Source of the DNA: a virus
Lineage: Duplodnaviria; Heunggongvirae; Uroviricota; Caudoviricetes
Virus record (IMG/VR): IMGVR_UViG_2558860274_000008
Coordinates: 1 to 29,339 of that record
Strand: one strand, 5' to 3'
DNA: 29,339 bases
Part shown: positions 8,001-29,339 of the stretch, piece after piece
How positions within the stretch are numbered: position 1 is the stretch's first letter
How the letters are laid out: each line of letters starts with the position of its first letter
Notes under the pieces: generated by a model
The model's database searches: none
The model's input: only the letters and a program-made list of their open reading frames with translations
What the model was told of the DNA's origin: nothing
Position numbers and translations under genes: made by a program

Positions 8001-8274
8001 AAAGGCGATGAAAGGTTAGATTGTTTGCCATTAGGTCAGGTGAGCTGGTCTGCATCACCTGTTTTAGAGCTTCTTCACACTTCTGCTCACTAAGGTGCGG
8101 GTTAATTCGTTGCAATGCTGTACGCACTTTATCTTCAAGGATAACCTGCTGATAGCTACGTAACGGATTGATTCCACTGGGTTCAATGTCCGGGCCGTAA
8201 ACATACTCATAGCCCAGCCCTTGCAGGTGCTCAATTGCCATTACTTCAATATCGGATTCGGTCATCTTTGCCAT
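5035..8274 (-). CDS. hsdR: Type I restriction enzyme R subunit (HsdR)
   Basis: 1079-aa ORF with Walker A (TQGSGKSLS) and DEAH box (VIADEAHRSQ) helicase motifs and HsdR-like N- and C-terminal regions. Sits downstream of hsdM-hsdS with an SD (AAGGA) before the ATG. Confidence 0.93.
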   Translation of the reverse strand: MAKMTESDIEVMAIEHLQGLGYEYVYGPDIEPSGINPLRSYQQVILEDKVRTALQRINPHLSEQKCEEALKQVMQTSSPDLMANNLTFHRLLTEGINIEVSKDGNTQGELASLIDFNDPTNNAFLVINQLTIKEGNHTRRPDLILFINGLPLVVIELKNAADENATVTGAYNQIKTYQNQIPGLFNYNAFNVISDGLEAKAGTVSADFSRYMTWKTANGKTQATSTQPQLEVLLQGLLNPVTLLDIIRHFIVFEASKHEDSKGIISIRTVKKMAAYHQYYAVNAAVLSTIRASAVNADSPSAEVALRQQGRNSKDLVNAQKTGDRKAGVVWHTQGSGKSLSMVFYTGKIVLALDNPTVVVITDRNDLDDQLFGTFSSATQLLRQTPKQANNREELKEYLRVASGGVVFTTIQKFQPDDGSNIYELLSDRTNIVVIADEAHRSQYGFSAKEVDVKDSEGNVTGKRTVYGFAKYMRDALPNATYLGFTGTPIEKTDVNTPAVFGNYVDIYDISQAVEDGATVRIFYESRLAKIAISDEGRQLIEDFDDEFNEDELTLTQKERSKWARIEGLIGSSKRIKAIAADMVLHFEQRLKSNADHGKGMIVTMSRRIAAELYKEIIALKPEWHSDDLNDGIIKVVMTSSAADGPEIAKHHTTKKERQVLANRMKDDDDKLKLVIVRDMWLTGFDAPSMHTLYIDKPMKGHNLMQAIARVNRVYKDKIGGLVVDYLGIASDLKEALSFYSDAGGRGDPAEVQEEAVTLMQEKLEILEGMMHGYDYKAYFAATTSQRLTIILESENHILGLDNGKGKMRFLAAVAALSQAFALATPHDKAMEAAPEVAFFQAVKARLNKFTENSDGSEEEHNDSLEVRVKQTIDQALVTDKVVDIFDAAGIQKPDISVLSEEFLQEMKDYQHRNIALETLKKLLSDEIKVRSNQSITQGKKLIDMLTSAINGYQNKVLTAAEVIDELIKLAKTIQESDSLASQLNLSAYEYAFYSAVADNDSARELMEKEKLRELAVVLTEAIRNNVSLDWTVKEAARAKIRVVVKRLLKKYGYPPDMSLLATETVLKQAELLAGELGK

Positions 8275-8332: not shown

Positions 8333-9526
8333 TTATGCTACTGATGCGATTGCTTCTTCCGCATACTGAACCCGTACTTCGCCGCTCATCAGTTTGGGAA
8401 GGAGAGTGTCGCGCAGAGATTCTATGTTTTTAATTTGTGAGTTGTTAATACTTATTTTTTTCCAGAAGAAATCAATCTGTGTAGTGAATTCTTTCACCAT
8501 ACACTCCGGGGGGAGTTTGAATTCTGGGCGTTGTAATCCGTCAGCCGACAGCTGATTTACAGTTGAACCGTTAGTTGCAGCAACAACTTGCTCATGCATA
8601 TCTTTGGAGCAAAGTAAATAGTACAGAAAAGCATTGGTTAAGTAACTATCGTCATTGATGCTGATTTTAAATAAATGATGCGTATATATGGATAATTCGC
8701 TTTCTGTTTTTGGAATTATAGCAGGATACCCTATGAGTCGATATTCATGGCCCTGTTCTGTATTGGCTACAATGATATCCCCAGGCTTTATAATATGCCT
8801 TTCTTTAAAATCACCATTGTAGTATTTTATACCTGCACTCTTATAACCACCGCCCTCAAGTACTGAGTTCAAACTAAAAAGTGGAATGCCGTTATCTGAC
8901 GTGGTAAGGCCGGCTCCCTTGTAGCTTAATCCCTTAGCTACTGTAATATGACAATCAAGAGTCGTTATTTCCCAATCCGCATGCGTCTCTTCAATAAACC
9001 ACTGTCTAAATAGGGTTTCTGCCATGGATTCCAGAGTTTTATTCTGGCGATGAAGCAGGTCTATTTTGTCTTTAAGAGAGGACAAAATAGAGGCGATGGC
9101 TTTTTGTTCAGATTCATCAATTGGTAAGTAAAGAGGAATCAAATTTAGCGATGCTTTATTTAATTTTGGTTGAGCAGCACCTGTTAAATAAGGAGATAGA
9201 TCAAGCTGTGAAAAATATTGGATTATCAATGCCGTTAAATGGGGCTTTTTAGCTTTAAGGACATGAGCGTGATTATTAACCCAAAATTTTCCAGTAGCTT
9301 CAAATGCTATAGGTGTTTTTCTGGACTTTAAGTTTTCTCCATCTTCAGAAATAAGGATGTAGCTGCCATCAAAAATATAATTGTCGATATAATCGACAAT
9401 TCCTGACGCTCCATAATATGGAAAATTTCCTTTCTTATGGGCTCGTTCCATAGCACTCAAAGGAATTCTTTGTGCGTTGCAAAAATCTGCTAATTCAGTT
9501 ATACAAAAATTTCTCCACCTACTCAT
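8333..9526 (-). CDS. hsdS: Type I restriction-modification specificity subunit (HsdS)
   Basis: 397-aa ORF between hsdM and hsdR, with a 4-nt overlap onto the hsdM stop. Two variable target-recognition halves separated by a conserved coiled-coil-like spacer ([13 protein letters not shown] type). Confidence 0.88.
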
Positions 9527-11070
9527 AAAACCACCTTCGCCAGATTATCAACGATGGCTCTGTTCAGACGCGCCTCTTCTTCCAGTTGCGCTTCAAACTC
9601 AGCTTTAAGAGCCGTAAAGCGTTCTTTAAAGTCGAAATCGTCTTCTTCATCAGCAAGACCAACATAACGGCCAGGTGTCAGCACATAATCGAGTTTAGCA
9701 ACTTCAGCAATGTCTACTGACGCACAGAAACCAGCGACGTCTTCGTAGTCGCCACCTTTGTTACGCCAGTTATGATAGGTATCAGCGATGGTTTTTATAT
9801 CGTCGTCAGAAAGTACTTTGGTACGACGATTAATTAAATGACCGAGATTACGGGCATCAATAAACAGAATTTCTTTACTACGATCACGATACTGGTTGCT
9901 GTTATGACGGTCACGGCGCATAAACCATAATGCAGCAGGGATCTGAGTATTCAGGAACAGCTTTGCCGGTAAGTTGACGATACAGTCAATCACATTGGCA
10001 TCTTTTACCAGTGCAGCACGAATATCACCTTCACCAGAGCTTTTAGAAGTTAATGCCCCTTTTGCCAGAACAACACCCGCTTGCCCTTTAGGAGACAAGT
10101 GATACAAAAAATGTTGCATCCATGCAAAGTTAGCGTTGCCAGCAGGTGGAATGCCATATTGCCAGCGGGCATCACCACGAAGCTGCTCACCAGACCAGTC
10201 GGAAACGTTAAACGGTGGGTTAGCTATGATAAAATCAGATTTCAAATCTTTGTGAGCATCGTTAAGAAATGAACCTTCATTATTCCAGCGAACGTGTTCA
10301 GAATTAATCCCACGAATTGCCAGGTTCATTTTTGCCAGACGCCAAGTGGTCTGGTTGGACTCCTGCCCATAGATCGAAATATCGTCAATATTTCCCTGAT
10401 GTGCTTCTACAAATTTTTCTGACTGAACGAACATACCACCAGAACCACAGCAGGGATCAAAGACACGGCCTTTATAGGGTTCCAGCATGTTAACCAGCAG
10501 GCTTACAATAGATTTTGGCGTATAGAACTGGCCGCCTTGTTTGCCTTCTGCCAGTGCAAATTCACCTAGGAAGTATTCGAATACGTGACCTAAAACGTCA
10601 GCAGAGCGTGCTTTGGCATCTCCTAGTGCAATGTTGCCAATCAGATCTATCAGCTCACCCAGAACAGTGGCGTCGAGGTTTTGTCGGGCATAGACTTTCG
10701 GCAACACACCTTTTAACTGTGGATTGCCCGCTTCGATAAGCTCCATCGCATCATCAACCATCTTACCGATTTCAGGAAGCTTGGCCTTAGAAATCAGATA
10801 GTTCCAACGTGCAAGCTCAGGGACAAAGAAAACGTTGTAAGCGGTGTACTCGTCTTTGTCTTCCGGATCAGCACCTGCGAACTCGCCTTTACCGGCTTTC
10901 AGCAACTCATAATGAGATTCAAAAGAATCAGAAATGTACTTAAGGAAAATGAGGCCTAGTACGACGTGCTTGTACTCGGCTGCATCAATGTTTTTACGCA
11001 GTTTGTCTGCCGCTTTCCACAGGATGACCTCTAACGGGTCTGTTTTGATTTCTTTAGGTTTTCTGGCCAT
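9523..11070 (-). CDS. hsdM: Type I restriction-modification N6-adenine DNA methyltransferase (HsdM)
   Basis: 515-aa ORF with the SAM-binding motif ([12 protein letters not shown]) and catalytic NPPF motif (IIANPPFN). Confidence 0.93.
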
Positions 11071-13562: not shown

Positions 13563-14455
13563 TTTAATACCTCTTTGTTTACTGGGGTTAATATCTGAGA
13601 TGGTAGTTCTGAAAGATTCTCTTGTTCAAGTATATGTTGAAAGCTTTTATTCATCATTATGATGTTAAAAATCTCATTTACTATTAGTAGGTTGGTTTTT
13701 ATGAATTTTGAGTTGTTATAAACAGATTTATGTTCAGCGATACTATTTTCATAAAGCTCAATCAACTCCTCTGCAGTCATCCTTTTTGATGGTTTGTGAT
13801 AATAAAATCCGGCTGCTTTTGCACCTTTATTCCCAACTGTTCTTTGATTTAGAATGTGTTTTATCTTTATAATGTCCCGACTTTTTATTAATTTTTTATC
13901 ATATGCTTCGGTAAGAATATCTTGTGCTTCCTCAGTTTCACATCTTGCAAATTGCACTGCGAGATACAGAGGCAAATTACCCCGTTCGACTGCTGAGAGA
14001 AGTTTATGCTCTCCCTTATCAAGTAGCATATTAATACTGCTCACCCAGTTCGATGAATATCCAGTAATCTCACTTATTTCGGAGTCTGAAAGTCCTCTGA
14101 TTTTCATGTCTTTAATCACCTGTAATAACTCATTAGAACGTGGTCTTCTCCTTGCAATGTTTTCAACTAAACTCATAACGTAAGCATCTTCTTCTGATAC
14201 ATCTCTTATAATTGCTGGAATAATAGTTTCACCTAATGCAACGAGAGCCTCTATTCTCCCTTGACCACAAATTAAAGCATATTTGAAATCACCTTCATCA
14301 ATAGCTCTTACGCTTATTGGCTTGCTTAATCCTCTTTTTTTTATGCTTTCCTTTATTTCTTCATGCACTACCTTATTTCTTGTTCGTGGGTTAAGAAATT
14401 TTATTTTTGCAATCTCAATTTGAATTATTGGGAATTCATTTTTTTCAGGCAGCAT
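13559..14455 (-). CDS. ParB-like protein (ParB/Spo0J N-terminal-domain fold plus HTH), paralog 1
   Basis: 298-aa ORF with segment KPISVRAIDEGDFKYALICGQGRIEALVALGETIIPAIIRDVSEEDAYVMSLVENIARRRP that parallels the Spo0J/ParB boxes (…Y.LIAGERR.RA…G…VPAIVRD…ENLQR). The arginine-rich motif is degenerate (GQGRIEA). Overlaps the recombinase stop by 11 nt. Confidence 0.7.
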   Translation of the reverse strand: MLPEKNEFPIIQIEIAKIKFLNPRTRNKVVHEEIKESIKKRGLSKPISVRAIDEGDFKYALICGQGRIEALVALGETIIPAIIRDVSEEDAYVMSLVENIARRRPRSNELLQVIKDMKIRGLSDSEISEITGYSSNWVSSINMLLDKGEHKLLSAVERGNLPLYLAVQFARCETEEAQDILTEAYDKKLIKSRDIIKIKHILNQRTVGNKGAKAAGFYYHKPSKRMTAEELIELYENSIAEHKSVYNNSKFIKTNLLIVNEIFNIIMMNKSFQHILEQENLSELPSQILTPVNKEVLK

Positions 14456-16001
14456 ATAGTTCCCTCACTTTCATGCGAGTAATAATTTGTAGAAGTTTAT
14501 CAAGATTATCAAATCTATAGAGATCTAATCGAATGTTGTTTGTTTCCGTCATGCACATTTTATTATATTCGTTTTCAATCTTTGGTATGATATAAAAATC
14601 AAGAGGTGAAATATTTTGTGAATTCATTCGTATAACAATTGTTATGTCTGCTTTCTGTGAGTTATCAAACCGGACTTTCCATCTAAGTTTACCTGATTTC
14701 ATATGTATGCATTTAGTAACAAGGACGGAAATTAAAAACTCATCATTGATGTAAAGCATTGGGGCATATTTATACTCGTCTATATGACAGTTACTTTTTA
14801 AAATTTCACCCTTAAAATCCTCAATTATCTCTGAGTAAAATGATCTTAGTGCTTCATTTATTTTGAGATAGCTGTAATCATGTTCTGGCTTATAACCAAT
14901 CAAAGTATATGCTCTTAAAAGACCACCAAATCGGGTTCTATAAACAGAAGATGAAGGGCCTGTATCATCTTCATCAATGATAAAGCCTGATAGTTTTCCA
15001 TTAGATTCTAATTTTTGTTTTAGTTTTTCTAATAGATCTTCATTAGTCAAATGAATGGATCGGAGCTGAATTATTTCTTGAGCTTTATTGTATTTTTTCT
15101 TTGAAATAATAGGTTTATATGCCTTGTCACATCTAACCCATTCATGTTTGGGGTTTTTTACAAGCCTACTTTTTAATTTAGATGAGGTTTTGTTATATAT
15201 GTTGTTTCCAATATATTTTTCATTTGTCAAAATTTGATGTATTTTTGCACGAGTCCATAATGTTCCATTTTCTGCAGGTATGTTCTGTTCATTTAATCTC
15301 TCAGCAATAATGAATTCTGGGACGTTATTATCTATAAAGAGATCATATATTCTATTTACAATTTTTATTTCATTTTTTGGTCCCGGAATTAATATTACCC
15401 TATCTGTTTGAATACTCTTTCTTTTGCGGAAACTCAATATTTCTTTAGCTATGCCATTTTCGTCTACTAAAAGACGTCTCAGCCCATAACCAGCCATACC
15501 GCCTTGATGATAACCAAGCTTTATTAAATTTACTTGCCCTATAAATACCTTTTCAGATAGATTCCTGCTGTGATATGCAGCACTAGATCTTTTTATATTC
15601 AGTATAACAGAGGACTCTAAAGGGAAATCTTTAGTGGGTATAGGTTCGGAACAATATATAAGATCTACACCATTTCTCTCAAATAGAAAGGAATAATATG
15701 CCGCTTCATCACTATTTTGAAAACGACCAAAACGGCTCACATCATAAAATAATACAGCCTGTATATCTATTTTCTTTTGTTCTACATCGCTAAGTAACTG
15801 CTGCAAAGAATGCCTGCCTACGATACTGACTCCGCTCTTACCTGCATCATCGTAGGTATAAGCGATTTCCATATTGTTCTTTTCAGCATAATCTTTGATA
15901 TATTCGGACTGATTATGTAAAGAATATTGCTGATGGTCGGTAGACATCCTCAAGTACTGCGCGACCCTAACTCTATGATTTTTGTCATTTTCGCTAGCCA
16001 T
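14445..16001 (-). CDS. Large serine recombinase (resolvase/invertase-type catalytic domain plus recombinase domain)
   Basis: 518-aa ORF whose N-terminus (VAQYLRMSTDHQ...YDDAGKSG...LQQLL...DVSRFGR) matches the serine-recombinase catalytic-domain pattern, followed by a long C-terminal extension typical of large serine recombinases. AT-rich, with an SD before the ATG. Confidence 0.85.
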   Translation of the reverse strand: MASENDKNHRVRVAQYLRMSTDHQQYSLHNQSEYIKDYAEKNNMEIAYTYDDAGKSGVSIVGRHSLQQLLSDVEQKKIDIQAVLFYDVSRFGRFQNSDEAAYYSFLFERNGVDLIYCSEPIPTKDFPLESSVILNIKRSSAAYHSRNLSEKVFIGQVNLIKLGYHQGGMAGYGLRRLLVDENGIAKEILSFRKRKSIQTDRVILIPGPKNEIKIVNRIYDLFIDNNVPEFIIAERLNEQNIPAENGTLWTRAKIHQILTNEKYIGNNIYNKTSSKLKSRLVKNPKHEWVRCDKAYKPIISKKKYNKAQEIIQLRSIHLTNEDLLEKLKQKLESNGKLSGFIIDEDDTGPSSSVYRTRFGGLLRAYTLIGYKPEHDYSYLKINEALRSFYSEIIEDFKGEILKSNCHIDEYKYAPMLYINDEFLISVLVTKCIHMKSGKLRWKVRFDNSQKADITIVIRMNSQNISPLDFYIIPKIENEYNKMCMTETNNIRLDLYRFDNLDKLLQIITRMKVRELYAA

Positions 16002-16283: not shown

Positions 16284-17513
16284 TTATGCGGCAATAACTT
16301 TGCATTTTTGAGACGAAACATAGTCACTCCACCATTGCATGAGAACCACCCGTTCAGTGAGATACTCTGCACGATTGTAGGCTGCAATTATTTCATCTTT
16401 CTTCGAGTGGGCAAGGGCGGCTTCTAAGACATCAGTCCTAAACTTGCCAGACTCCTCAGCAGCCGTTCTAGCAATGGATCGCATACCGTGAGCTACAAGC
16501 TCACCTCCGAAACCCATACGGATTATGGCCGCATTAGCTGTTTGTTCATGCATGTGATTGAGTGGAGCTTTGATACTGGGGAACACCCACTCTCTATGCC
16601 CGCTGATGACTTTCATTAAATCCAAAACTCGCAAAGCTTCTTTGCTCAGTGGAACTTTGTGAGGCTTCTTCATTTTCATAAACTCCGCCGGGATGTTCCA
16701 CATGCCAGTTTCAATATCAATATCTGACCATCTTGTGCGAACAGCTTCACCTGGGCGAACCCATGTGAGAAGTTGCCACTCAATCAGTAGCCTTGTTTCC
16801 AAACGGATAGAAGCATTGTTTAGAGCAACCAAGAAGCGAGGGAGTTCGGAAGGGGGTAATGCTGGCATATTCTGTTTTTTTGGCTTGCTGAACCGTTGCC
16901 CCAGGTTGTCTGCCGGGTTGAATTCTATGAGTTCTTCTGTTGCTGCATAGCGGAAAATTTCATTCAGGCGGGATATGATGCGGCGAAGTGTTTCAAGGAC
17001 ACCTCGTTTTTCTATGGGTTCTAAATGCTGTTTAAGCATTTTAGGGCGAATCTCCTTAATTGGGGTATCACCCAATGTGGAAAAGATATTTCTCTCTAGG
17101 CTTCGCCAGATGTCGTTAGCATGATCTTGGGAGATGCCTGACGTTTTGACTTTCTCATCAAGCCACTTCTTGGCTACTGCTTGAAATGTATGTTCCGTGG
17201 CATCTTTCAGTGCATTGGCTTTTTGGTTGTTATGAACTTGGGGGTCTATACCATTTGTAAGCAACGACAAGTATTCATCACGTAAAGCTCGTGCCTTCGC
17301 AAGTGTAAGGTGAGGATAGGTTCCTAAGCTCACCTTAGTTCGCTTTTTGGTCACAGGCACTGCATATCTGAAATACCAATTTTTCTTCCCTCCCTTCGCC
17401 AGGGGAGCGATTCGCAACAGCAAACCATCGCCGTCAAAAAGGTTCACCTCTTTTTCGGCAGGTTTGGTGCTTTTGATTTCAGTGTCAGTGAGCTTCTTAG
17501 CGATTTTGGCCAT
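16284..17513 (-). CDS. int: P4-type tyrosine integrase
   Basis: Start placed at the internal Met (MAKIAKKLTDTEIK...), which has a GAGGG SD 8 nt upstream. C-terminal region has the tyrosine-recombinase R...H..R..Y pattern (AHGMRSIARTAA...AYNRAEYL). Sits next to a degenerate ssrA 3'-end repeat. Confidence 0.88.
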   Translation of the reverse strand: MAKIAKKLTDTEIKSTKPAEKEVNLFDGDGLLLRIAPLAKGGKKNWYFRYAVPVTKKRTKVSLGTYPHLTLAKARALRDEYLSLLTNGIDPQVHNNQKANALKDATEHTFQAVAKKWLDEKVKTSGISQDHANDIWRSLERNIFSTLGDTPIKEIRPKMLKQHLEPIEKRGVLETLRRIISRLNEIFRYAATEELIEFNPADNLGQRFSKPKKQNMPALPPSELPRFLVALNNASIRLETRLLIEWQLLTWVRPGEAVRTRWSDIDIETGMWNIPAEFMKMKKPHKVPLSKEALRVLDLMKVISGHREWVFPSIKAPLNHMHEQTANAAIIRMGFGGELVAHGMRSIARTAAEESGKFRTDVLEAALAHSKKDEIIAAYNRAEYLTERVVLMQWWSDYVSSQKCKVIAA

Positions 17514-17611
17514 GTTTGGGACCCTCGATTTTAGGACCCATCTTCGTGGGTCCCATTCAGGGTGCCATAACTCGTAGTTCTCAGCAATTCTCACTAGACT
17601 ACAATAGACGT

Positions 17612-20846: not shown

Positions 20847-22058
20847 TTAAATCGCTTGCATGAGGAGGTGGCGATTGTGCACAAATTCCCCCCACCAATT
20901 CATCAAGTCTATACGTTGTTCTAGGTAAGTTGAACGATTGTATGCTCTGCGAACTTCATTTTTATCACTGTGAGCAAGTGCCGCTTCAATTACGTCCGGA
21001 TTAAAACCAGCTTCATTTAGCGCGGTACTTGCTATAGAACGTAATCCATGAGCAACAAGCTTCCCACCATAACCAATGCGCTTAAGTGCAGCATTAGCAG
21101 TCTGGCTATTCATTGGTTGTTTAGGATCATTCCTACTTGGAAAAATATGTTCACGATGAGCACTGATTGGCTTCATCACTTCCAGAATCTCTAATGCCTG
21201 AGAAGACAGTGGGACAATATGCTTGCGTTTCGCCTTCATCCGTTCGGCTGGAATCGTCCAGAACTTTGAATCGAGATCGATCTCTGCCCACCGAGCACCG
21301 GAGGCCTCAGAAGGGCGCACAATGGTCAGGAGTTGCCATTCAATTAGACAGCGAGTCGGAACAGACAGATTAGACATAACCAAAGAACGCATCAGCTTTG
21401 GTAATTCTTCTGGCCGGAGCGTCGGCATGTTTTGCTTTTTAGGTTTCTCAAAAGCCATCCCAATACCTGATGCTGGATTGGCATCAATCAGACCAGTGTT
21501 TACGGCATAAATCATTATCTCGTTAATGCGCTGCACCAGACGACGTACCGTCTCTAGCGCCCCACGTGCTTTGATTGGCTCAAGGGCTTCAACAAGTGTT
21601 CGGGCTTTGATTTGCTGAACTGGGATCTCACCGATGGCAGGGAATACATCTTTTTCTAGTGAACGCCAAATGTCTTTCGCGTAATCAGGGGTAACGCTTT
21701 TGCTTTTAAGCTGGAACCAGTTAGCGGCGACTGTTGAAAAAATACTGTCCAGTGCGATTTGCTGCTGTTCCTCTGCAATTTCAGCTTGAATTTGCGGGTC
21801 AATTCCGTTGGCTAACAAGGAAAGGTAATCCGCTCTTAACCGTCGGGCGTCAGCAAGTGAAAGGGCGGGGAAGGCTCCTAGCCCCATCATTGTTCGCTGC
21901 TTTGTTGCTGGACGTTGATAACGGAAACGCCATAACTTCTTACCGTTCGTTTTAACGAGCAGAAAAAGACCATCGCCATCATGCAACGTTAGATCCTTTT
22001 CTAACGCTTTAGCGCGCAGAACTTCTGTGTTGGTCAGGGGGCGTGTCGTTCTTGCCAC
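20847..22058 (-). CDS. int: P4-type tyrosine integrase
   Basis: 403-aa ORF with a GTG start preceded by GAAGGAG. N-terminus MARTTRPLTNTEV...DGDGLFLLV and a tyrosine-recombinase C-terminal pattern. Adjacent to the ssrA 3'-end repeat. Confidence 0.9.
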   Translation of the reverse strand: MARTTRPLTNTEVLRAKALEKDLTLHDGDGLFLLVKTNGKKLWRFRYQRPATKQRTMMGLGAFPALSLADARRLRADYLSLLANGIDPQIQAEIAEEQQQIALDSIFSTVAANWFQLKSKSVTPDYAKDIWRSLEKDVFPAIGEIPVQQIKARTLVEALEPIKARGALETVRRLVQRINEIMIYAVNTGLIDANPASGIGMAFEKPKKQNMPTLRPEELPKLMRSLVMSNLSVPTRCLIEWQLLTIVRPSEASGARWAEIDLDSKFWTIPAERMKAKRKHIVPLSSQALEILEVMKPISAHREHIFPSRNDPKQPMNSQTANAALKRIGYGGKLVAHGLRSIASTALNEAGFNPDVIEAALAHSDKNEVRRAYNRSTYLEQRIDLMNWWGEFVHNRHLLMQAI

Positions 22059-22242: not shown

Positions 22243-22287
22243 TGGTGGAGCTGGCGGGAGTTGAACCCGCGTCCGAAATTCCTACAT
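22243..22287. repeat. Direct repeat of the ssrA 3' end (att core) between the P2-like and P4-like remnants
   Basis: 45-bp exact match to 28280-28324 (TGGTGGAGCTGGCGGGAGTTGAACCCGCGTCCGAAATTCCTACAT). Confidence 0.9.
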
Positions 22288-22411
22288 ACCATTTTTACTA
22301 TAATAAAAACAGTTATTTATTTTTTAAATCAGTATGTTAGTGTTATTTGGTGTTTCTCCGTTTTATGTGTTTTTAATGTTCTGCCGCCAAAGTGTCGCCA
22401 CTATTGCTGGC

Positions 22412-23599
22412 CTATCTAATAGGTGAATAATCAAATAAGCGATCCATACAAACTTCCAGTTTATAAAAGTCAGTTAATGGGTAAAGTCTGATTATGTCAC
22501 TATCAAAATCAGTAATGCCAGATAGCCTTTCTTTTCGAGCAAGAAATCTGATAGCTTTCCCCTGCTCAGATGTTTTAGGGATTGCATTCTGATACTCTAA
22601 TGTTTTTAAAACCTGCCATGAAACAGGTGGAGTAAAATCAAATAATGATGACAACCTTGGGCAAAAATCTTTTTGAGTCGTTTGTCTATATGTGGCTTTG
22701 GGGGGTAATACAACATTTATTGAAAGTTTTGAACCTAGACTTTTTTTCATTTTCGTTGATGAATAGGCTATGCCAGATATTGGAGATTGACCCCGTGTGC
22801 TTATCCACTGCATGAGTAAATTAGGTATTATATATTCTTGCGTAAAACTTGAGTTTTCATGTGTTTTTATATAGCTACATGAGAAAATTAAGGGCCAGAG
22901 AACCAAATACGAAGCTTTGATATAATTATTTGTTCTTAACTCTTCGCTGCTCCATTCTTTAGTATTGATTGAGGTTTTCAGTTGTGGAACAAAGTTAAGG
23001 ATTTTAGATTTAGTATCTTGTGATATGAATGAGGATATATATAGTTTATCAAAATCTGGTTTGTCCATTTCTTGCCAGCATACATATAGAGATGAACCTA
23101 GATATAAACAGGGGAGTCCCGCTACTGAGTAACGTTGAGCACTGACAAGGTGTCGGCAGGAAAATGGTATATGGAAAATATCTTCCCTGTTAAGTAATGG
23201 CTTGTCTGATTTGCGTACTCTATAGAGTGGTTGATCATAATTACATATTTCCTTAAGGGGGATTGTGATTCTTTGAATATGCTTATTAATAAGATTGTCT
23301 GAAAAAGTGTCATCGAAAATATCATATGCCTCTTTGATGTCACCCGCTAAAAACTCTTGAAGGCTCTCGGTTATTCCTAGTTGTATTTTTAATACTCGCT
23401 TTATTAGCAGATCAATATTAAGCCTGGTTTTGTTTTTAATTTTAAATTCATTTAAAAAATTAAGGTATTCATTGCAGCGAGAGTTAAAATCAGAAACGAT
23501 GTCACCTTTAGGTTTAAAAGGTGGCATTAAATCCTCATTACTATACAACTCATTCAGCATCATATTTAACTGAGTTTCAACATCTCTATCCTGTTGCAT
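22412..23599 (-). CDS. Hypothetical protein with a RES-domain-like region and an N-terminal extension of about 120 aa
   Basis: 395-aa AT-rich ORF starting 7 nt after the int stop. Segment PLYRVRKS...FHIPFSCRHLVSAQRYSVAGLPCLYLGSSLYVCWQE matches the RES-domain pattern. No adjacent small antitoxin-like ORF. Confidence 0.6.
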   Translation of the reverse strand: MQQDRDVETQLNMMLNELYSNEDLMPPFKPKGDIVSDFNSRCNEYLNFLNEFKIKNKTRLNIDLLIKRVLKIQLGITESLQEFLAGDIKEAYDIFDDTFSDNLINKHIQRITIPLKEICNYDQPLYRVRKSDKPLLNREDIFHIPFSCRHLVSAQRYSVAGLPCLYLGSSLYVCWQEMDKPDFDKLYISSFISQDTKSKILNFVPQLKTSINTKEWSSEELRTNNYIKASYLVLWPLIFSCSYIKTHENSSFTQEYIIPNLLMQWISTRGQSPISGIAYSSTKMKKSLGSKLSINVVLPPKATYRQTTQKDFCPRLSSLFDFTPPVSWQVLKTLEYQNAIPKTSEQGKAIRFLARKERLSGITDFDSDIIRLYPLTDFYKLEVCMDRLFDYSPIR

Positions 23600-23606
23600 T
23601 CTTTTC

Positions 23607-24623
23607 TCACTTTAATAAATTTAGTGGATTTTTAGTCACCGCGTCTTCTAAATGATCTGGAGAAAAATGAGCGTAGATCATCGTCATTTTTATATCCGCA
23701 TGTCCTAGAATATCGCGCAGCACCAGTATGTTTCCGCCATTCATCATAAAGTGGCTGGCAAATGTATGGCGCAGGACGTGGGTGCATTGGCCTTCCGGTA
23801 GTTCGATACCGGCCCGTTTTACCGCCCGTTCAAAGGCTTTTCTGCATGGTGTGAATAACTTCCCTCGTTTTTTGGGGAGTTCGTTGTACAGTTCCTGAGA
23901 AATAGGTACGGTTCGGTTTTTCTTGCCCTTTGTCTTGGTATAAGTTATACGGTATTTTGATAACTGATGACCCTGCAGGTTTTCGGCTTCACTCCAGCGC
24001 GCGCCTGTGGCTAAGCATATTTTTGCAATCAAAAGTAGGCTGGGATTTTGAGAATCAGCACAGGCATTCAGCAAGCGTTTTATTTCTTCCTGTGTCAGAA
24101 ATGCCAGTTCGCCCTCTGCAATTTTAAATGTTGGTAGACCGGCGAGTGGGTTGGGGGCGGACCAGTGGCCTAATTTTTTTAAAGTTCCAAAAACTGATGA
24201 TAGATTGCGTTGTTCAAGGTTTACTGTTCGAGGCTTAACCGGCGACATAAACACACCATCAATGTTTTTAACGTCACCTTTTAGTCGCGCTTCCCGATAC
24301 TTAGTGAAATCACCTGCTGTCAATTCAGAGGCTATGGGATCACCAAGTCCACCACAAATGATTTTTAATTTCGCCATTAAACGCTTGGGGTCAGCGAGAG
24401 TTCGACCATACAGGGAATACCACAGCTCAATTAATTCTGACAGGTGCCGCCGATCATCCTTTTCACCTAACCACGGTTTTTTGTTCACCTCTTCCATAGT
24501 GAAGCTTTCAAACGCAATGGCTTCGCCTTTCGTAGCAAATTGCTTACGTACGCGTTTGCCATTGCGTCCATTGGGATAGCACTCACACAACCATTTACCG
24601 TTTGGCTGTTTTCTGACAGTCAT
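23607..24623 (-). CDS. int: P2-type tyrosine integrase
   Basis: 338-aa ORF (MTVRKQPNGKWLCECYPNG...ICLATGARWSEAE...HVLRHTFASHFMMNGGNILVLRDILGH...MTMIYAHF), directly downstream of the repressor gene as in P2/186. Confidence 0.92.
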   Translation of the reverse strand: MTVRKQPNGKWLCECYPNGRNGKRVRKQFATKGEAIAFESFTMEEVNKKPWLGEKDDRRHLSELIELWYSLYGRTLADPKRLMAKLKIICGGLGDPIASELTAGDFTKYREARLKGDVKNIDGVFMSPVKPRTVNLEQRNLSSVFGTLKKLGHWSAPNPLAGLPTFKIAEGELAFLTQEEIKRLLNACADSQNPSLLLIAKICLATGARWSEAENLQGHQLSKYRITYTKTKGKKNRTVPISQELYNELPKKRGKLFTPCRKAFERAVKRAGIELPEGQCTHVLRHTFASHFMMNGGNILVLRDILGHADIKMTMIYAHFSPDHLEDAVTKNPLNLLK

Positions 24624-24625
24624 GT

Positions 24626-25258
24626 TTAGATACTCTTTATTACTTTGACTGCGCGCCCAATAACTTCCACATCATCAGCAGAGCACTCGAAAGACGCTTC
24701 ATCTTGATTTACTACAATCTTATTGCCGGGAATCCGCATGATTTTTGCAATAATAATCATTCCATCAATATTGATAAGCCAGAATCCATTGCTGACTTGT
24801 TTAACTGATTTATCGATGAGATAACAATCAGTAGGGGTTTCTAAGAACATCGATTCTTCATAATGTGCAGGTAATATGCTGTGGTCTAGAAAAATCTTTT
24901 CATCAATACGGAGTTTTCCATTCTCCAAGGTTCCTTTAGGAATAGATGGAGTTACGAGTTTGGATAACGGTCTAATCGCTAGTTTGTTCTCATTATGAGA
25001 ACTTTTTTCAGGCTCACATTCTTCTTTCATGCTTCCCTGTCCTGTTGCTAACCAAAGCAACGAAACACCAGTTTCTAGTGCGCACTGAATTATCCAGTCA
25101 GCAGGAAAGCTATCACGTAACACTCTGTTTGCCATAGTGCTTTTTGAGACATTCAGATGCTCGCTTAATGCCTGCTTAGTTGTGAATCCATAAGCCTCAA
25201 GCAGCCTCTCAATAGCTGCCTTACCTCCCGTATCGGAACCCATTCTGATGTTTAACAT
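24626..25258 (-). CDS. cI: Phage CI-type repressor (N-terminal HTH)
   Basis: 210-aa ORF with HTH region TKQALSEHLNVSKSTMANRVLRDSFP. Divergent from the cox-like gene, with a strong SD. Confidence 0.8.
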   Translation of the reverse strand: MLNIRMGSDTGGKAAIERLLEAYGFTTKQALSEHLNVSKSTMANRVLRDSFPADWIIQCALETGVSLLWLATGQGSMKEECEPEKSSHNENKLAIRPLSKLVTPSIPKGTLENGKLRIDEKIFLDHSILPAHYEESMFLETPTDCYLIDKSVKQVSNGFWLINIDGMIIIAKIMRIPGNKIVVNQDEASFECSADDVEVIGRAVKVIKSI

Positions 25259-25379: not shown

Positions 25380-25781
25380 ATGAGCAACGACATTTCAATT
25401 CGTGTACCAAAAGTGATGGCGACCCCTGCAGAGTTCGCGGAATGGGAAGGCCGATCTCGTGGTTCGGTATATCAAATGATTCACAATGGTAAACTTGCTA
25501 AGTTTTTGGAAAAAAAGGAAAAATCGAAAGACAGAGTATGTATACGTTACCTTGAGTACAAAAAGGAACAAGTCAGGAAAAACATGGGCCACCCGATCTA
25601 TTACCACGGTGAGCACCGCCACCGGATTGAGGCACCGACGCAGATCATCATTCAGACGCAGCCAGGACAAAGTGCGCAGGATATTGCGCGGGAGGTGGCA
25701 CGCCAGCTTGATGAACGTGAACGCAGGCTGAAGGCAAAAGCCAGGAGTAACTACAGCGATCAGGGGGGATACGACGCATGA
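25380..25781 (+). CDS. Cox/Apl-like HTH N-terminus continuous with the 3' end of the tail gene preceding U (probable deletion fusion)
   Basis: 133-aa ORF. N-terminus (..ATPAEFAEWEGRSRGSVYQMIHNGKL..) is excisionase/Cox-like. Its stop overlaps the U start (ATGA), as expected for the gene upstream of U in P2 (T). The junction is not precisely located. Confidence 0.5.
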   Translation: MSNDISIRVPKVMATPAEFAEWEGRSRGSVYQMIHNGKLAKFLEKKEKSKDRVCIRYLEYKKEQVRKNMGHPIYYHGEHRHRIEAPTQIIIQTQPGQSAQDIAREVARQLDERERRLKAKARSNYSDQGGYDA

Positions 25782-26263
25782 TGATGGTGCTGGGATTGTA
25801 CGTGTTTATGCTGCGCACCGTTCCGTATCAGGAACTGCAGTATCAACGCAGCTGGCGACATGCGGCAAACAGCCGGGTAAACCGTCGTCCGTCCACGCAG
25901 TTTCTGGGACCGGACAACGACATGCTGACGCTTTCTGGTGTTCTTATGCCGGAGATAACGGGCGGCAGGCTGTCGTTGCTGGCTCTGGAGCAGATGGCAG
26001 AACAGGGAAAAGCATGGCCCCTGATTGAAGGCAGCGGCACGATTTACGGCATGTATGTGATTGAGGGACTGAATCTGACTAAAACGGAGTTTTTCCGCGA
26101 CGGTATGCCGCGCCGGATTGAGTTCACCCTGTCGCTCAAACGGGTGGATGAATCCCTGTCCGATATGTTCGGTGATCTCAGTACGCAACTGAATAATCTG
26201 CAGGACACGGCAACATCTGCCTTAAGTGATATCAGTAAAACGGTGGGAGGGCTGCTGTCGTGA
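25778..26263 (+). CDS. U: P2 gpU-like tail protein
   Basis: 161-aa ORF (MMMVLGLYVFMLRTVPYQELQYQRSWRH...LGPDNDMLTLSGVL...) recognisable as P2 U from memory. Confidence 0.9.
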   Translation: MMMVLGLYVFMLRTVPYQELQYQRSWRHAANSRVNRRPSTQFLGPDNDMLTLSGVLMPEITGGRLSLLALEQMAEQGKAWPLIEGSGTIYGMYVIEGLNLTKTEFFRDGMPRRIEFTLSLKRVDESLSDMFGDLSTQLNNLQDTATSALSDISKTVGGLLS

Positions 26264-27360
26264 ATTTCAGCTCTGAACTGCTTAACAAAGGCAACAAAAC
26301 TCCCGCATTCAGCATCAGTATTGAGGGCAGGGATATCACCACTGTGCTGGATAACCGCCTGATGAGTTTGACTCTGACGGACAATCGGGGCTTTGAAGCG
26401 GACCAGCTTGATCTGGAGCTGGACGACGCCGACGGAAAAATCGTGCTGCCGCGCCGTGGTGCGGTCATTACGCTGGCGCTGGGCTGGAAGGGGCAGCCGC
26501 TTTTCCCTAAAGGGGCATTCACGGTGGACGAGATTGAACACACTGGCGCACCGGACCGCCTGACTATCCGGGCGCGAAGTGCTGATTTTCGGGAAACGCT
26601 GAATACCCGTCGTGAAAAGTCGTGGCACAAGACCACCGTCGGGGAAGTGGTGAAGGAAATAGCCGCGCGGCACAAGCTGAAGATGGCACTGGGTAAAGAC
26701 CTGTCGGATAAGCCCGTGGAACATATAGACCAGACCAATGAGAGTGACGGCAGTTTTCTGATGCGGCTGGCGCGCCAGTACGGTGCTATTGCGTCGGTGA
26801 AAAACGGCAATCTGTTATTCATCCGGCAGGGACAGGGCAAAAGCGCCAGCGGTAAACCTCTGCCGGTGATCACTATCACACGCAAGGACGGCGACAGTCA
26901 CCGCTTTACCCTGGCAGATCGCGGAGCCTATACGGGCGTAATTGCCAGTTGGTTGCATACCCGCGAACCCGCGAAGAAAGAAAGCACCACGGTGAAGCGT
27001 AAGTGCAGGACAGCAAAGCAGAAGAAAGAGCCGGAAGCGAAGCAGGGCGATTACCTGGTGGGTACGGATGAAAACGTGCTGGTACTTAATCGCACTTATG
27101 CCAACCGGAGCAACGCTGAACGGGCAGCGAAAATGCAGTGGGAACGCCTGCAACGCGGCGTTGCGTCATTCTCGCTACAACTGGCGGAAGGTCGGGCAGA
27201 TCTCTACACGGAAATGCCAGTGAAAGTCAGTGGCTTTAAACAGCCGATAGATGATGCGGAATGGACCATTACGACTCTGACACATACCGTCAGCCCGGAT
27301 AACGGTTTTACAACCAGTATTGAACTCGAAGTGAAGATTGATGATCTTGAAATGGAATGA
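26260..27360 (+). CDS. D: P2 gpD-like tail protein (late control gene D)
   Basis: 366-aa ORF overlapping the U stop. Gene order U-D-ogr. Confidence 0.9.
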   Translation: MNFSSELLNKGNKTPAFSISIEGRDITTVLDNRLMSLTLTDNRGFEADQLDLELDDADGKIVLPRRGAVITLALGWKGQPLFPKGAFTVDEIEHTGAPDRLTIRARSADFRETLNTRREKSWHKTTVGEVVKEIAARHKLKMALGKDLSDKPVEHIDQTNESDGSFLMRLARQYGAIASVKNGNLLFIRQGQGKSASGKPLPVITITRKDGDSHRFTLADRGAYTGVIASWLHTREPAKKESTTVKRKCRTAKQKKEPEAKQGDYLVGTDENVLVLNRTYANRSNAERAAKMQWERLQRGVASFSLQLAEGRADLYTEMPVKVSGFKQPIDDAEWTITTLTHTVSPDNGFTTSIELEVKIDDLEME

Positions 27361-27428
27361 ATTGTTCTCAATATTGATATTTTGTGTATCATTACAATGA
27401 TTCTGATAGCAAAGGTAGGGATCTGGAT

Positions 27429-27647
27429 ATGATGAATTGTCCGAAGTGTGGTCATGCGGCGCACACAAGGAGCAGTTTTCAAGTAACAGAAAGCACCAAA
27501 GAGCGTTACTGCCAGTGCCAAAATATTAACTGCGGGAGCACTTTTGTTACCCATGAAACAGTGGTCCGGTTTATTGTGACACCTGCATTGATTGCTACAG
27601 CCCCTCCACATCCATTGCCAGGTGGTCAGGGGCATATGAATTTTTGA
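27429..27647 (+). CDS. ogr: Ogr-type late transcription activator (zinc finger)
   Basis: 72-aa product from the internal Met (MMNCPKCGHAAHTRSS...ERYCQCQNINCGSTF...PHPLPGGQ) with a C-x2-C...C-x4-C pattern and P2 Ogr length. Confidence 0.9.
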   Translation: MMNCPKCGHAAHTRSSFQVTESTKERYCQCQNINCGSTFVTHETVVRFIVTPALIATAPPHPLPGGQGHMNF

Positions 27648-27652
27648 GAAAG

Positions 27653-27678
27653 AGAACCTGCTACGGCAGGTTTTTATT
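27653..27678. terminator. Bidirectional terminator hairpin between convergent ogr and the WYL/BRCT-like gene
   Basis: AACCTGC-tacg-GCAGGTT followed by TTTTTATT. Confidence 0.65.
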
Positions 27679-28156
27679 CATCTGGGATCTCACCCGTTTC
27701 AAGAAAATGTATAAAGCCAGGCTCATCTATGATGATTGTGCCTTTCATCCTGGCTGCCGATACTTTTGATGGGCCTGCATTGTAACCGCAACAGAGCATC
27801 TGAAGGCTTTGGGTTACAGAGGTTCTTACCGTTAATCCTTGTTCATTCGCCTTATCAACCAATCTTTCTTTATCTGCTTTCTTAAATCCGGTGAAGCACA
27901 CATCGAATGTATTTTTTTTCGGACCAGACTGCTTAGTGAGATGTGAGTAGTTTTCGGGGAGGAATGACGCGCATTCCTGAATGGCTTGTTCTGGTGAATC
28001 GTACTGTTTAAGAATGCGGTCTTTTCGGAAGGTTTTTATTCGATCGGTGTTCTTACAAATGCCCTGTATATGATTTTCGCTATAACTGATGCTCTGTATT
28101 GAGTGAACACCGATACGACCATTTGCATTGATGTAAACAAAGTGAAGTTCTTCCAT
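27674..28156 (-). CDS. Hypothetical protein with a WYL-like N-terminal region and BRCT-like C-terminal region; cargo between ogr and ssrA
   Basis: 160-aa ORF with AGAGG SD. N-terminal ..RIKTFRKDRI.. resembles the WYL-domain R.FR.DRI signature. C-terminal DVCFTGF....ERL...A...G..V...V......L..G...G.SK...A.....IIDE..F resembles a BRCT fold pattern. Confidence 0.55.
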   Translation of the reverse strand: MEELHFVYINANGRIGVHSIQSISYSENHIQGICKNTDRIKTFRKDRILKQYDSPEQAIQECASFLPENYSHLTKQSGPKKNTFDVCFTGFKKADKERLVDKANEQGLTVRTSVTQSLQMLCCGYNAGPSKVSAARMKGTIIIDEPGFIHFLETGEIPDE

Positions 28157-28182
28157 GTGAAACCTCTTTGCATGATTTCAAG

Positions 28183-28221
28183 ATGGCGACAGGCAAGATG
28201 GACGCAAAAGTCTGTCGCCAT
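28183..28221. promoter_or_regulatory. Perfect 10-bp inverted repeat upstream of the WYL/BRCT-like gene
   Basis: ATGGCGACAG (28183-28192) and CTGTCGCCAT (28212-28221), 19-bp spacer, between the ssrA terminator and the gene start. Confidence 0.5.
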
Positions 28222-28236
28222 TTTGCCGCCACTATC

Positions 28237-28270
28237 AAAGAAAAAGGGGCTACGCTTTCACGTAACCCCT
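28237..28270 (-). terminator. Rho-independent terminator of ssrA (minus strand)
   Basis: AGGGGTTACGTGAAAGCGTAGCCCCT followed by TTTTTCTTT on the minus strand, immediately 3' of the tmRNA CCA end. Confidence 0.7.
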
Positions 28271-28279
28271 TGATTTATT

Positions 28280-28642
28280 TGGTGGAGCTGGCGGGAGTTG
28301 AACCCGCGTCCGAAATTCCTACATCCTCGGTACTACATGCTTAGTCAGTCTTTACATTCGCTTGCCAGCTGCGGACGGACACGCCACTAACAAACTAGCC
28401 TGATTAAGTTTTAACGCTTCAACCCCAGGCAGGGCTTCCACGCGATCTCTTTTGGGTTTGACCTCTCTTGATCCCCGTCCTAAGAGCGGAGGCTAGGGAG
28501 AGAGGGCTCTAAGCAGGTTATTAAGCTGCTAAAGCGTAGTTTTCGTCGTTTGCGACTATTTTTTGCGGCTTTTTACGAGGCCAACCGCCCCTCGGCATGC
28601 ACCTTGGGTTTCGCAAATCCCGTCGAATCCAGAATCAGCCCC
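28280..28642 (-). ncRNA. ssrA: tmRNA (SsrA), 363 nt
   Basis: Reverse complement reads GGGGCTGATTCTGGATTCGACGGG...GCAAACGACGAAAACTACGCTTTAGCAGCTTAA (ANDENYALAA tag)...GGTTCAACTCCCGCCAGCTCCACCA, matching enterobacterial ssrA as I recall it. Confidence 0.95.
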
Positions 28643-28856: not shown

Positions 28857-29339
28857 TTAACGATGGGCGTTCTTCATGATACGCGCTTTATCCACCTGCC
28901 ATTCGCGCTCTTTGATATCAGAACGTTTATCGTGTTGTTTCTTACCTTTGGCGACGCCGATTTTTACTTTGCACCAGGCATTTTTCCAGTACAAGGAGAG
29001 CGCCACTACGGTATAGCCTTCGCGGTTTACGCGACCATAGAGAGAATCCAGTTCACGCTGGTTGAGAAGTAATTTGCGGGTACGAGTTGGATCGCACACT
29101 ACATGTGTGGAAGCCACAGCCATTGGCGTAATGTTAGCGCCAAACAGGAATGCTTCACCGTCGCGCAGAAGGACATAGCTGTCGCTAATATTGGCTTTTC
29201 CTGCGCGCAGGGATTTAACTTCCCAGCCTTGCAGGGCAAGTCCCGCTTCGAATTCTTCTTCGATAAAGTATTCGTGACGGGCGCGCTTGTTAAGCGCGAT
29301 GGTCGCTGAACCAGGTTTATGTGCTTTTTTCTTCGTCAT
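28857..29339 (-). CDS. smpB: SsrA-binding protein SmpB
   Basis: 160-aa ORF ([48 protein letters not shown]...) upstream of ssrA on the same strand. Start codon is at the window edge. Confidence 0.93.

Follow-up and report, generated by a model that had tools for sequence, protein, structure and literature searches.

Near the end of the window, by which we mean the whole 29,339-nucleotide stretch analyzed here (IMG/VR record IMGVR_UViG_2558860274_000008, from a virus of the Caudoviricetes), a minus-strand gene at 27674..28156 encodes a 160-residue protein that combines a WYL and a BRCT domain, and which we call WYL-BRCT. Its open reading frame (ORF) begins with an ATG preceded, 7 nt upstream, by a GAGG Shine-Dalgarno sequence, and runs convergently with the plus-strand ogr gene (27429-27647), from which it is separated by a hairpin (27655..27672) that is terminator-like on both strands. 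On its other side follow, all on the minus strand, a terminator hairpin (28244..28271) downstream of the ssrA 3' end at 28280, the transfer-messenger RNA (tmRNA) gene ssrA itself (28280-28642) and smpB (28857-29339). This terminator is supplied by the phage in place of the native ssrA terminator, which is found after the copy of the ssrA 3' end at the left attachment site (attL). Across genera the stem of the phage-supplied terminator changes on both strands in a manner that looks compensatory (GGGG/CCCC to AGGG/CCCT), as read off the alignment with the pairs uncounted. No Ogr-type TGT-N12-ACA site was seen by eye between the ssrA terminator and the WYL-BRCT ATG, and a conserved RNA element in the 5' leader was considered and rejected, as a hairpin folds there with modest support (z = -2.0) but is not conserved in relatives. 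A first-pass annotation of the sequence had placed a 160-residue minus-strand gene between the ogr terminator and ssrA, which is correct, and had held that this interval normally contains no gene, which is not: the same gene occupies it in the intact phages Cartapus and 500465-1, and the ogr-gene-ssrA arrangement recurs in 171 of 5426 complete E. coli genomes.

This part of the window is one end of a 186-type P2-like prophage, now decayed, that is integrated in ssrA. The right attachment core (attR; 28280..28324, minus strand) is the 45-bp 3' end of ssrA and is an exact direct repeat of the duplicated ssrA 3' end that forms the attL core (22243..22287, minus strand). Inside attL lies the minus-strand lysogeny operon of the remnant (22412..25258), recognized from Pfam matches, the gene order of Cartapus and synteny; it consists of a 186-type cI gene (24626-25258), a tyrosine integrase gene, int (23607-24623), both identified by Pfam, and a gene for a 395-residue cargo protein (22412-23599) between int and attL. 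In the intact phage Cartapus, cI, int, gp33, attP and the WYL-BRCT gene follow one another on one strand, convergent with ogr and D. Hence, in the circular phage the cI-int operon reads across attP toward WYL-BRCT, the last gene in that direction, and after integration the gene comes to lie at the prophage end, directly downstream of ssrA. E. coli MARGA_3 likewise has a full prophage at ssrA that includes this gene, there annotated as a "BRCT domain-containing protein", and in a sister prophage at ssrA of E. coli A28 (L056, 1790-3070) the slot between ogr and attR instead holds a retron-type reverse transcriptase (2192-2965; PADLOC RT_VI, 6.6e-18). The interval between ogr and ssrA is a standard cargo position of the 186-type P2-like lineage, and our analysis shows WYL-BRCT to be a genuine accessory (cargo) gene of those phages of this lineage that integrate into ssrA. 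Passages of a 2026 survey (PMC13586616) describe a minor P2 defence hotspot between the integrase and att, which, as described there, corresponds to the 395-residue gene on the opposite side of attP from WYL-BRCT; the att slot on the ogr side is not named as a hotspot in those passages of the survey that a term search matched. From its position in the integrase-att slot, as these passages describe it, the 395-residue gene is a candidate defence gene of unassigned family. Its product matches no credible Pfam or PADLOC family and is 45% identical to Cartapus gp33 ("putative RES protein").

The WYL-BRCT protein is composed of a WYL beta-barrel (residues 3-52), two helices (55-73), a basic linker (75-84) and a BRCT domain (85-154). 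Judged by its predicted structure, the N-terminal half is a WYL domain: it adopts a Sm-like five-stranded beta-barrel that is nearest to known WYL structures, with PafBC, CapW, BrxR and DriD as the best matches in the fold comparison. This comparison was needed because a profile of the N-terminal domain of the family, run against PDB sequences, recovered the WYL domain of PafBC alone and without significance (E 1.3). The Pfam WYL profile (PF13280) does not match the window protein even at E<=10 and matches 4 of the 54 aligned family members at E<=0.01; its gathering score (21.8 bits) is passed by the relatives P0138 (28.5), P0201 and P0197 (28.8), P0233 (26.5) and an ORF at locus L045 (34.9), all of the same family. 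An FR.DRI-type motif follows the WYL strand, with T42 invariant and F43, R44, D46 and R47 conserved in 87-98% of the 54 sequences, and this region aligns with "NFRLDRV" of PafBC. A helix-turn-helix (HTH) domain is absent from the profile matches, and the predicted structure has no N-terminal helices, the barrel beginning at residue 3. There is likewise no WCX domain, the C-terminal domain being a BRCT instead. Lacking both, the protein is not a WYL transcription factor.

The BRCT domain that makes up the C-terminal half is of the type found in RFC1 and LigA. In Pfam the only match of the window protein itself is to BRCT (PF00533), just under threshold (E 1.1e-3), and 38 of the 54 aligned family members match this model. 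The family profile run against PDB found its best sequence matches in the BRCT domains of RFC1 (2.7e-5) and LigA (3.8e-5), with which the BRCT fold is shared. Three residues of the domain, T89, G90 and K131, are invariant in the 54 sequences; in the predicted structure the first two lie in the loop between beta1 and alpha1 and the third at the start of alpha2. A T-G pair after beta1 together with a lysine at the start of alpha2 marks the position of the phosphate-binding pocket in BRCT domains. The residues of this pocket (S/T-G after beta1, Lys in alpha2) are thus present in WYL-BRCT, for which phosphate binding is predicted, and the conserved K92, K93 and K96 adjoin T89-G90. We show the product, then, to be a stand-alone WYL-BRCT protein without an HTH, WCX or enzymatic domain.

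The family to which it belongs is large. A word-indexed search recovered 122 relatives; in an exhaustive hidden Markov model search, the clusters formed at 50% identity numbered 207 at E<=1e-30 and 889 at E<=1e-10. Across the 54-sequence alignment Y8, T42, T89, G90, F91, L99, L121, G124 and K131 are invariant, and the conserved motifs take the forms KTFRKDR(I/V), CFTGFKK..K and CGYNAGP.K. Identical or near-identical proteins occur in E. coli prophages, and WP_000391794.1, Cartapus gp32 and PHL101 ORF34 are further examples of the family. Makarova et al. 2014 (PMC4012209) had already listed the WYL+BRCT architecture, and the window protein is matched over its full length by PHROG 2561 (2e-77); it is therefore a further member, in an ordinary prophage location, of a family already known from PHROG and from an NCBI entry. 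The labels that these proteins currently carry are "DNA ligase" (PHROG 2561 and RefSeq phage records), "putative exonuclease" and, at NCBI, "BRCT domain-containing protein". The first of these arose from similarity to the C-terminus of LigA. Matches to LigA models are limited to the last ~70-100 positions and reach 19.6 bits against a cut-off of 444 bits, scans of the protein with Pfam, NCBIfam and PADLOC returned BRCT-level matches only, and a BFVD search returned only ligase and BRCT labels (phage LigA, ligase subunit B). A ligase identity was accordingly rejected, and the exonuclease label is likewise unsupported: no catalytic domain is present, neither an adenylation nor an OB or HhH domain, and the WYL and BRCT domains account for all 160 residues.

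In longer relatives the order WYL-then-BRCT is fixed. Among 48 relatives with N-terminal extensions (P0121-P0263), 42 have in the extension one to five hydrophobic segments resembling transmembrane (TM) helices, and these segments predict a membrane-anchored form as a major sub-architecture of the family. A variant of this TM type (L045, 5719-6519) occupies the slot between repressor and D in a P2-like prophage of the Pasteurellaceae and is the ORF that scores 34.9 bits on the Pfam WYL model. The extension domains matched no Pfam or PADLOC families. One recurrent domain, itself without a Pfam match, is fused to the WYL-BRCT module either at its C-terminus (P0159, P0175, P0181, P0185) or at its N-terminus (P0121, P0124, P0129), and is elsewhere encoded by an adjacent gene (L019, 6502-7098; L036, 2174-3163); its motifs, read roughly by eye, are G(F/Y)..GW.hAhP..F...LDIK and WTQG..F.F..G. 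This domain might serve as an effector or partner.

The genomic contexts of homologues elsewhere tie the family to phage repressors. In Mannheimia phage PHL101 and Vibrio phage PV94 the homologue directly follows the gene for a CI-type repressor, on the same strand and a few to tens of nucleotides away, and in Burkholderia phages a gene for a 249-residue hypothetical protein stands between an XRE-type regulator and the homologue. The direct arrangement with cI upstream was found at no fewer than 9 of 49 genome loci (at least L012, L014, L028, L029, L030, L033, L035, L039 and L042), and the linked repressors include both 186-type CI and HTH-S24 proteins. Two loci have tyrosine recombinases of the IntI/Xer type nearby (L019, 4521-5507; L026, 4382-5428), which suggests integron-like settings; at a further locus (L011) the homologue adjoins a tRNA-Trp gene. 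Other neighbours are an AbiGi-like gene (L022, 5343-5900) and a DUF7380/DUF4209 gene (L033, 6527-8314). Beside one distant homologue a second WYL-like gene is found in tandem (L025, 6601-7206).

Upstream of the WYL-BRCT ATG, at a distance of 26 nt, lies a perfect 10-bp inverted repeat with a 19-nt spacer (ATGGCGACAG at 28183-28192 and CTGTCGCCAT at 28212-28221), which extends to 14 nt at 93% (28179-28192 / 28212-28225). When the 123-nt intergenic region was resampled 5000 times under a first-order Markov model, inverted repeats of >=10 bp appeared in 0.5% of the resamples; hence chance does not account for the repeat. Each of its arms is a copy of TGGCGRCA, a motif of which the window has 9 occurrences where 1.8 would be expected, with five of these occurrences in the att arms. 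In the P' arm the direct repeats TGGCGGCA and TGGCGACA, 11 bp from start to start (28213..28231, minus strand), are putative arm-type sites of a 186-type integrase (Int), and the promoter-distal repeat of this pair is the right arm of the inverted repeat. The left arm is a third, inverted copy of TGGCGACA (28184..28191, plus strand), seen in the E. coli lineage and phage Cartapus and absent in relatives at ~70% identity. A corresponding pair, TGGCGACA and TGGCGGCA, again 11 bp apart, lies in the P arm (22382..22400, minus strand), just past the last gene of the cI-int operon; the P and P' pairs have the same orientation and flank the 45-bp cores on both sides. The attP of intact Cartapus has the same layout, namely a pair, an AT-rich region, the 45-bp core, the terminator, a pair and the inverted copy. 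The int gene carries the Int_N domain PF24624, and the published consensus of 186-type Int arm sites, tgccGCCActt (Nilsson et al., PMC3448106), is in reverse complement, aagTGGCggca, the motif found here (agTGGCGGCA). In orthologous loci of Erwinia, Klebsiella, Plesiomonas, Tatumella and Citrobacter, which lie directly downstream of ssrA and encode proteins of ~70% identity, the block GTGGCGGCAAA(A/T)TGGCG(A/G)CAG is invariant and the distal palindrome arm is absent, so that conservation does not extend to the palindrome. In E. coli A28 the sister prophage has retained the arm-site pair but with a different gene in the slot. Its retron-type reverse transcriptase has a structured region upstream, and a lone copy of TGGCGACA (1790-1797) stands directly after the ogr stop, at the other edge of the cargo. 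The best reading of the palindrome from these comparisons is that it consists of putative integrase arm-type sites of the attP P' arm together with a lineage-specific third, inverted copy.

These observations bear directly on the model of the first-pass annotation, in which WYL-BRCT is a WYL-type transcription regulator that acts in trans and autoregulates through the upstream palindrome. That annotation had recognized both domains by pattern, and its assignments are borne out, for the N-terminus by the fold comparison with PafBC, CapW, BrxR and DriD and for the C-terminus by the RFC1/LigA profile matches and fold; the perfect 10-bp repeat that it reported is also there. Its regulator, and the palindrome as an operator of the protein, are disfavoured: WYL-BRCT has no HTH or other sequence-specific DNA-binding domain and no WCX, the palindrome is absent in orthologous loci of five other genera where the arm-site pair is conserved, further copies of the motif, which agrees with the Int arm consensus, lie in the opposite att arm, and the A28 prophage retains the pair without the gene. 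Although the repeat is statistically non-random, and although WYL regulators are described in passages of one study (PMC9122601) as often lying beside defence genes, we regard this model as very improbable, and transcription control by WYL-BRCT in any form as unlikely. The proximity to these sites could alternatively point to an accessory factor of site-specific recombination, directional or architectural, acting at attP, attR or attL. The gene does adjoin P' arm sites in prophages of E. coli, Klebsiella, Citrobacter, Erwinia, Tatumella and Plesiomonas, and in L011 the homologue is next to tRNA-Trp; however, at many loci, among them those of Mannheimia, Vibrio and Burkholderia, the gene has no att site beside it, these phages already encode recombination directionality factors of the Cox/Apl type, and a retron takes its place in the sister prophage with the same att arms; we regard such a role as very improbable.

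The relationship of the C-terminal domain to LigA and RFC1, whose BRCT domains are its closest sequence relatives, raises the further possibility that the protein modulates or competes with the host NAD-dependent ligase LigA, or is a ligase accessory subunit, binding nicks or cohesive ends and helping or blocking their sealing for the phage. The phage LigA and ligase subunit B matches in BFVD and the "DNA ligase" annotation of PHROG 2561 and of RefSeq phage records would speak for this, but that annotation was transferred from the BRCT domain alone, the absence of adenylation, OB and HhH domains means that the protein cannot itself be a ligase, and its position in lysogeny operons and cargo slots is not suggestive of a role in replication or packaging; we consider the idea improbable. 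A DNA-damage sensor that tunes the lysis-lysogeny decision of its own prophage is more probable than this, though we think it rather unlikely. RFC1-type BRCT domains recognize 5' junctions, the same structure that is used for RecFOR loading, and a sensor of single-stranded DNA (ssDNA) or of broken ends that is co-transcribed with cI might modulate the repressor, Int or RecA loading and so promote or restrain induction. The tight, operon-like linkage to CI-type repressors across genera would fit such a protein, as would the part that WYL domains play in PafBC, DriD and CapW as sensors of ssDNA damage (PMC11662680). Yet the repressors to which the gene is linked, 186-type CI and HTH-S24, are of two unrelated types, the gene is found as well next to IntI/Xer-type recombinases and outside prophages, most extended relatives are predicted to be membrane-anchored, and in the E. 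coli phages int, the cargo gene and attP separate it from cI.

Against these alternatives we tentatively favor, at somewhat short of even confidence, a role for WYL-BRCT as a putatively lysogen-expressed protein that recognizes or caps DNA structures and would serve superinfection exclusion or defence, or supply the sensor half of such a system. By analogy with CapW, DriD and PafBC, the WYL barrel would bind single-stranded nucleic acid or a nucleotide-like ligand, and the RFC1/LigA-type BRCT, through T89-G90, K131, K92, K93 and K96, would bind phosphate, for example at a 5'-phosphorylated DNA end or nick. Together the two domains might recognize or cap junctions of ssDNA and double-stranded DNA, nicks or ends, and such structures would be typical of entering or replicating foreign DNA. 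If the gene is indeed expressed in the lysogen, its most likely target is foreign DNA that is entering or replicating. Superinfection exclusion or defence is suggested by the predicted membrane-anchored relatives, the linkage to cI, the retron that fills this slot in the sister prophage and the defence-type neighbours. Several findings weigh against this proposal. A search of the stretch from the ssrA terminator to the ATG revealed no sigma-70-type promoter, and expression in the lysogen stays putative. In CapW the contacts to ssDNA are made by a serine, by the FR.DR arginine and by two further arginines that flank the WYL strand, with WCX contributing to the pocket (PMC11662680), whereas in WYL-BRCT the flanking arginines are not conserved, the FR.DR arginine (R44) alone is kept and the WCX domain that completes the pocket of CapW is absent; hence ssDNA binding is not assured and the comparison is an analogy only. 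PADLOC-DB v2 contains no full-length defence model that matches beyond the shared BRCT, which hits the C-terminus of the candidate PDC-S48 (1.8e-7), with SspE as a weak match. The evidence for the slot comes from a single sister prophage, many relatives lie in uninformative contexts of metagenome-assembled genomes, and the literature on WYL+BRCT, prophage or P2-like BRCT proteins yielded no functional study of the family. A wider claim, which we regard as doubtful, is that the family represents a new, widespread, single-gene system of superinfection exclusion or defence, with soluble and membrane-tethered forms in temperate phages and possibly integrons, that would cap or recognize invading DNA at ssDNA/5'-phosphate junctions, nicks and cohesive ends upon entry or in early replication, without an enzymatic effector.

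Comparison with known systems places WYL-BRCT apart from each of them. The regulators CapW, BrxR, PafBC and DriD combine a winged HTH with WYL and WCX; WYL-BRCT has neither winged HTH nor WCX and so offers no basis for operator binding or for the known allosteric switch, nor is there, in five other genera, a conserved inverted-repeat operator upstream of its gene. With the BRCT domains of RFC1 (p140) and LigA it shares the fold and T89, G90 and K131, but here a single BRCT is joined to a WYL barrel and not to a clamp-loader or ligase catalytic core, and binding of DNA ends is predicted only. In position, within an immunity operon or an att-flanking variable slot, it resembles exclusion and defence cargo expressed in lysogens, such as RexAB next to cI in lambda, Old, Tin and Fun of P2, and the retrons of P2/186-like prophages; it has no sequence relationship to any of these, and the likeness is one of position alone.

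The remainder of the window comprises the rest of the prophage remnant and a series of islands. In the 6.1-kb remnant a deletion (junction near 25575-25616) has fused the cox/apl early region with the 3' end of the tape-measure gene T; the remnant retains cI, int, both att-flanking cargo genes, U, D and ogr, and a 133-residue ORF that spans the junction (25380-25781, plus strand) is probably chimeric. The late genes that are left (25616..27647, plus strand) comprise the 3' end of T, U (25778-26263), D (26260-27360) and ogr. Downstream of the attL copy of the ssrA 3' end, islands are arrayed in tandem (window 1-22240), with P4-type integrases at 20847-22058 and 16284-17594, a large serine recombinase at 14445-16001, and the type I restriction-modification genes hsdM (9523-11070), hsdS (8333-9526) and hsdR (5035-8274), all on the minus strand. 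Two degenerate att relics near ypjA (H46 and H47) were examined and proved uninformative.

Taken on its own terms, the WYL-BRCT gene is a moderate lead rather than a surprise, since its product, though uncharacterized, has a known domain architecture and its place in the prophage is an ordinary one. Some practical value lies in correcting the annotation of a large family that is mislabelled "DNA ligase" or "exonuclease". For the 186-type phages that integrate into ssrA, the analysis indicates that attP has cargo slots on both sides, and that what appears to be an operator palindrome is better explained by integrase arm sites. If the proposed role is true, the family would pair domains best known from the sensing of DNA damage (WYL) and the recognition of DNA ends (BRCT), and would provide prophages with a compact, non-enzymatic means to sense or block foreign DNA.
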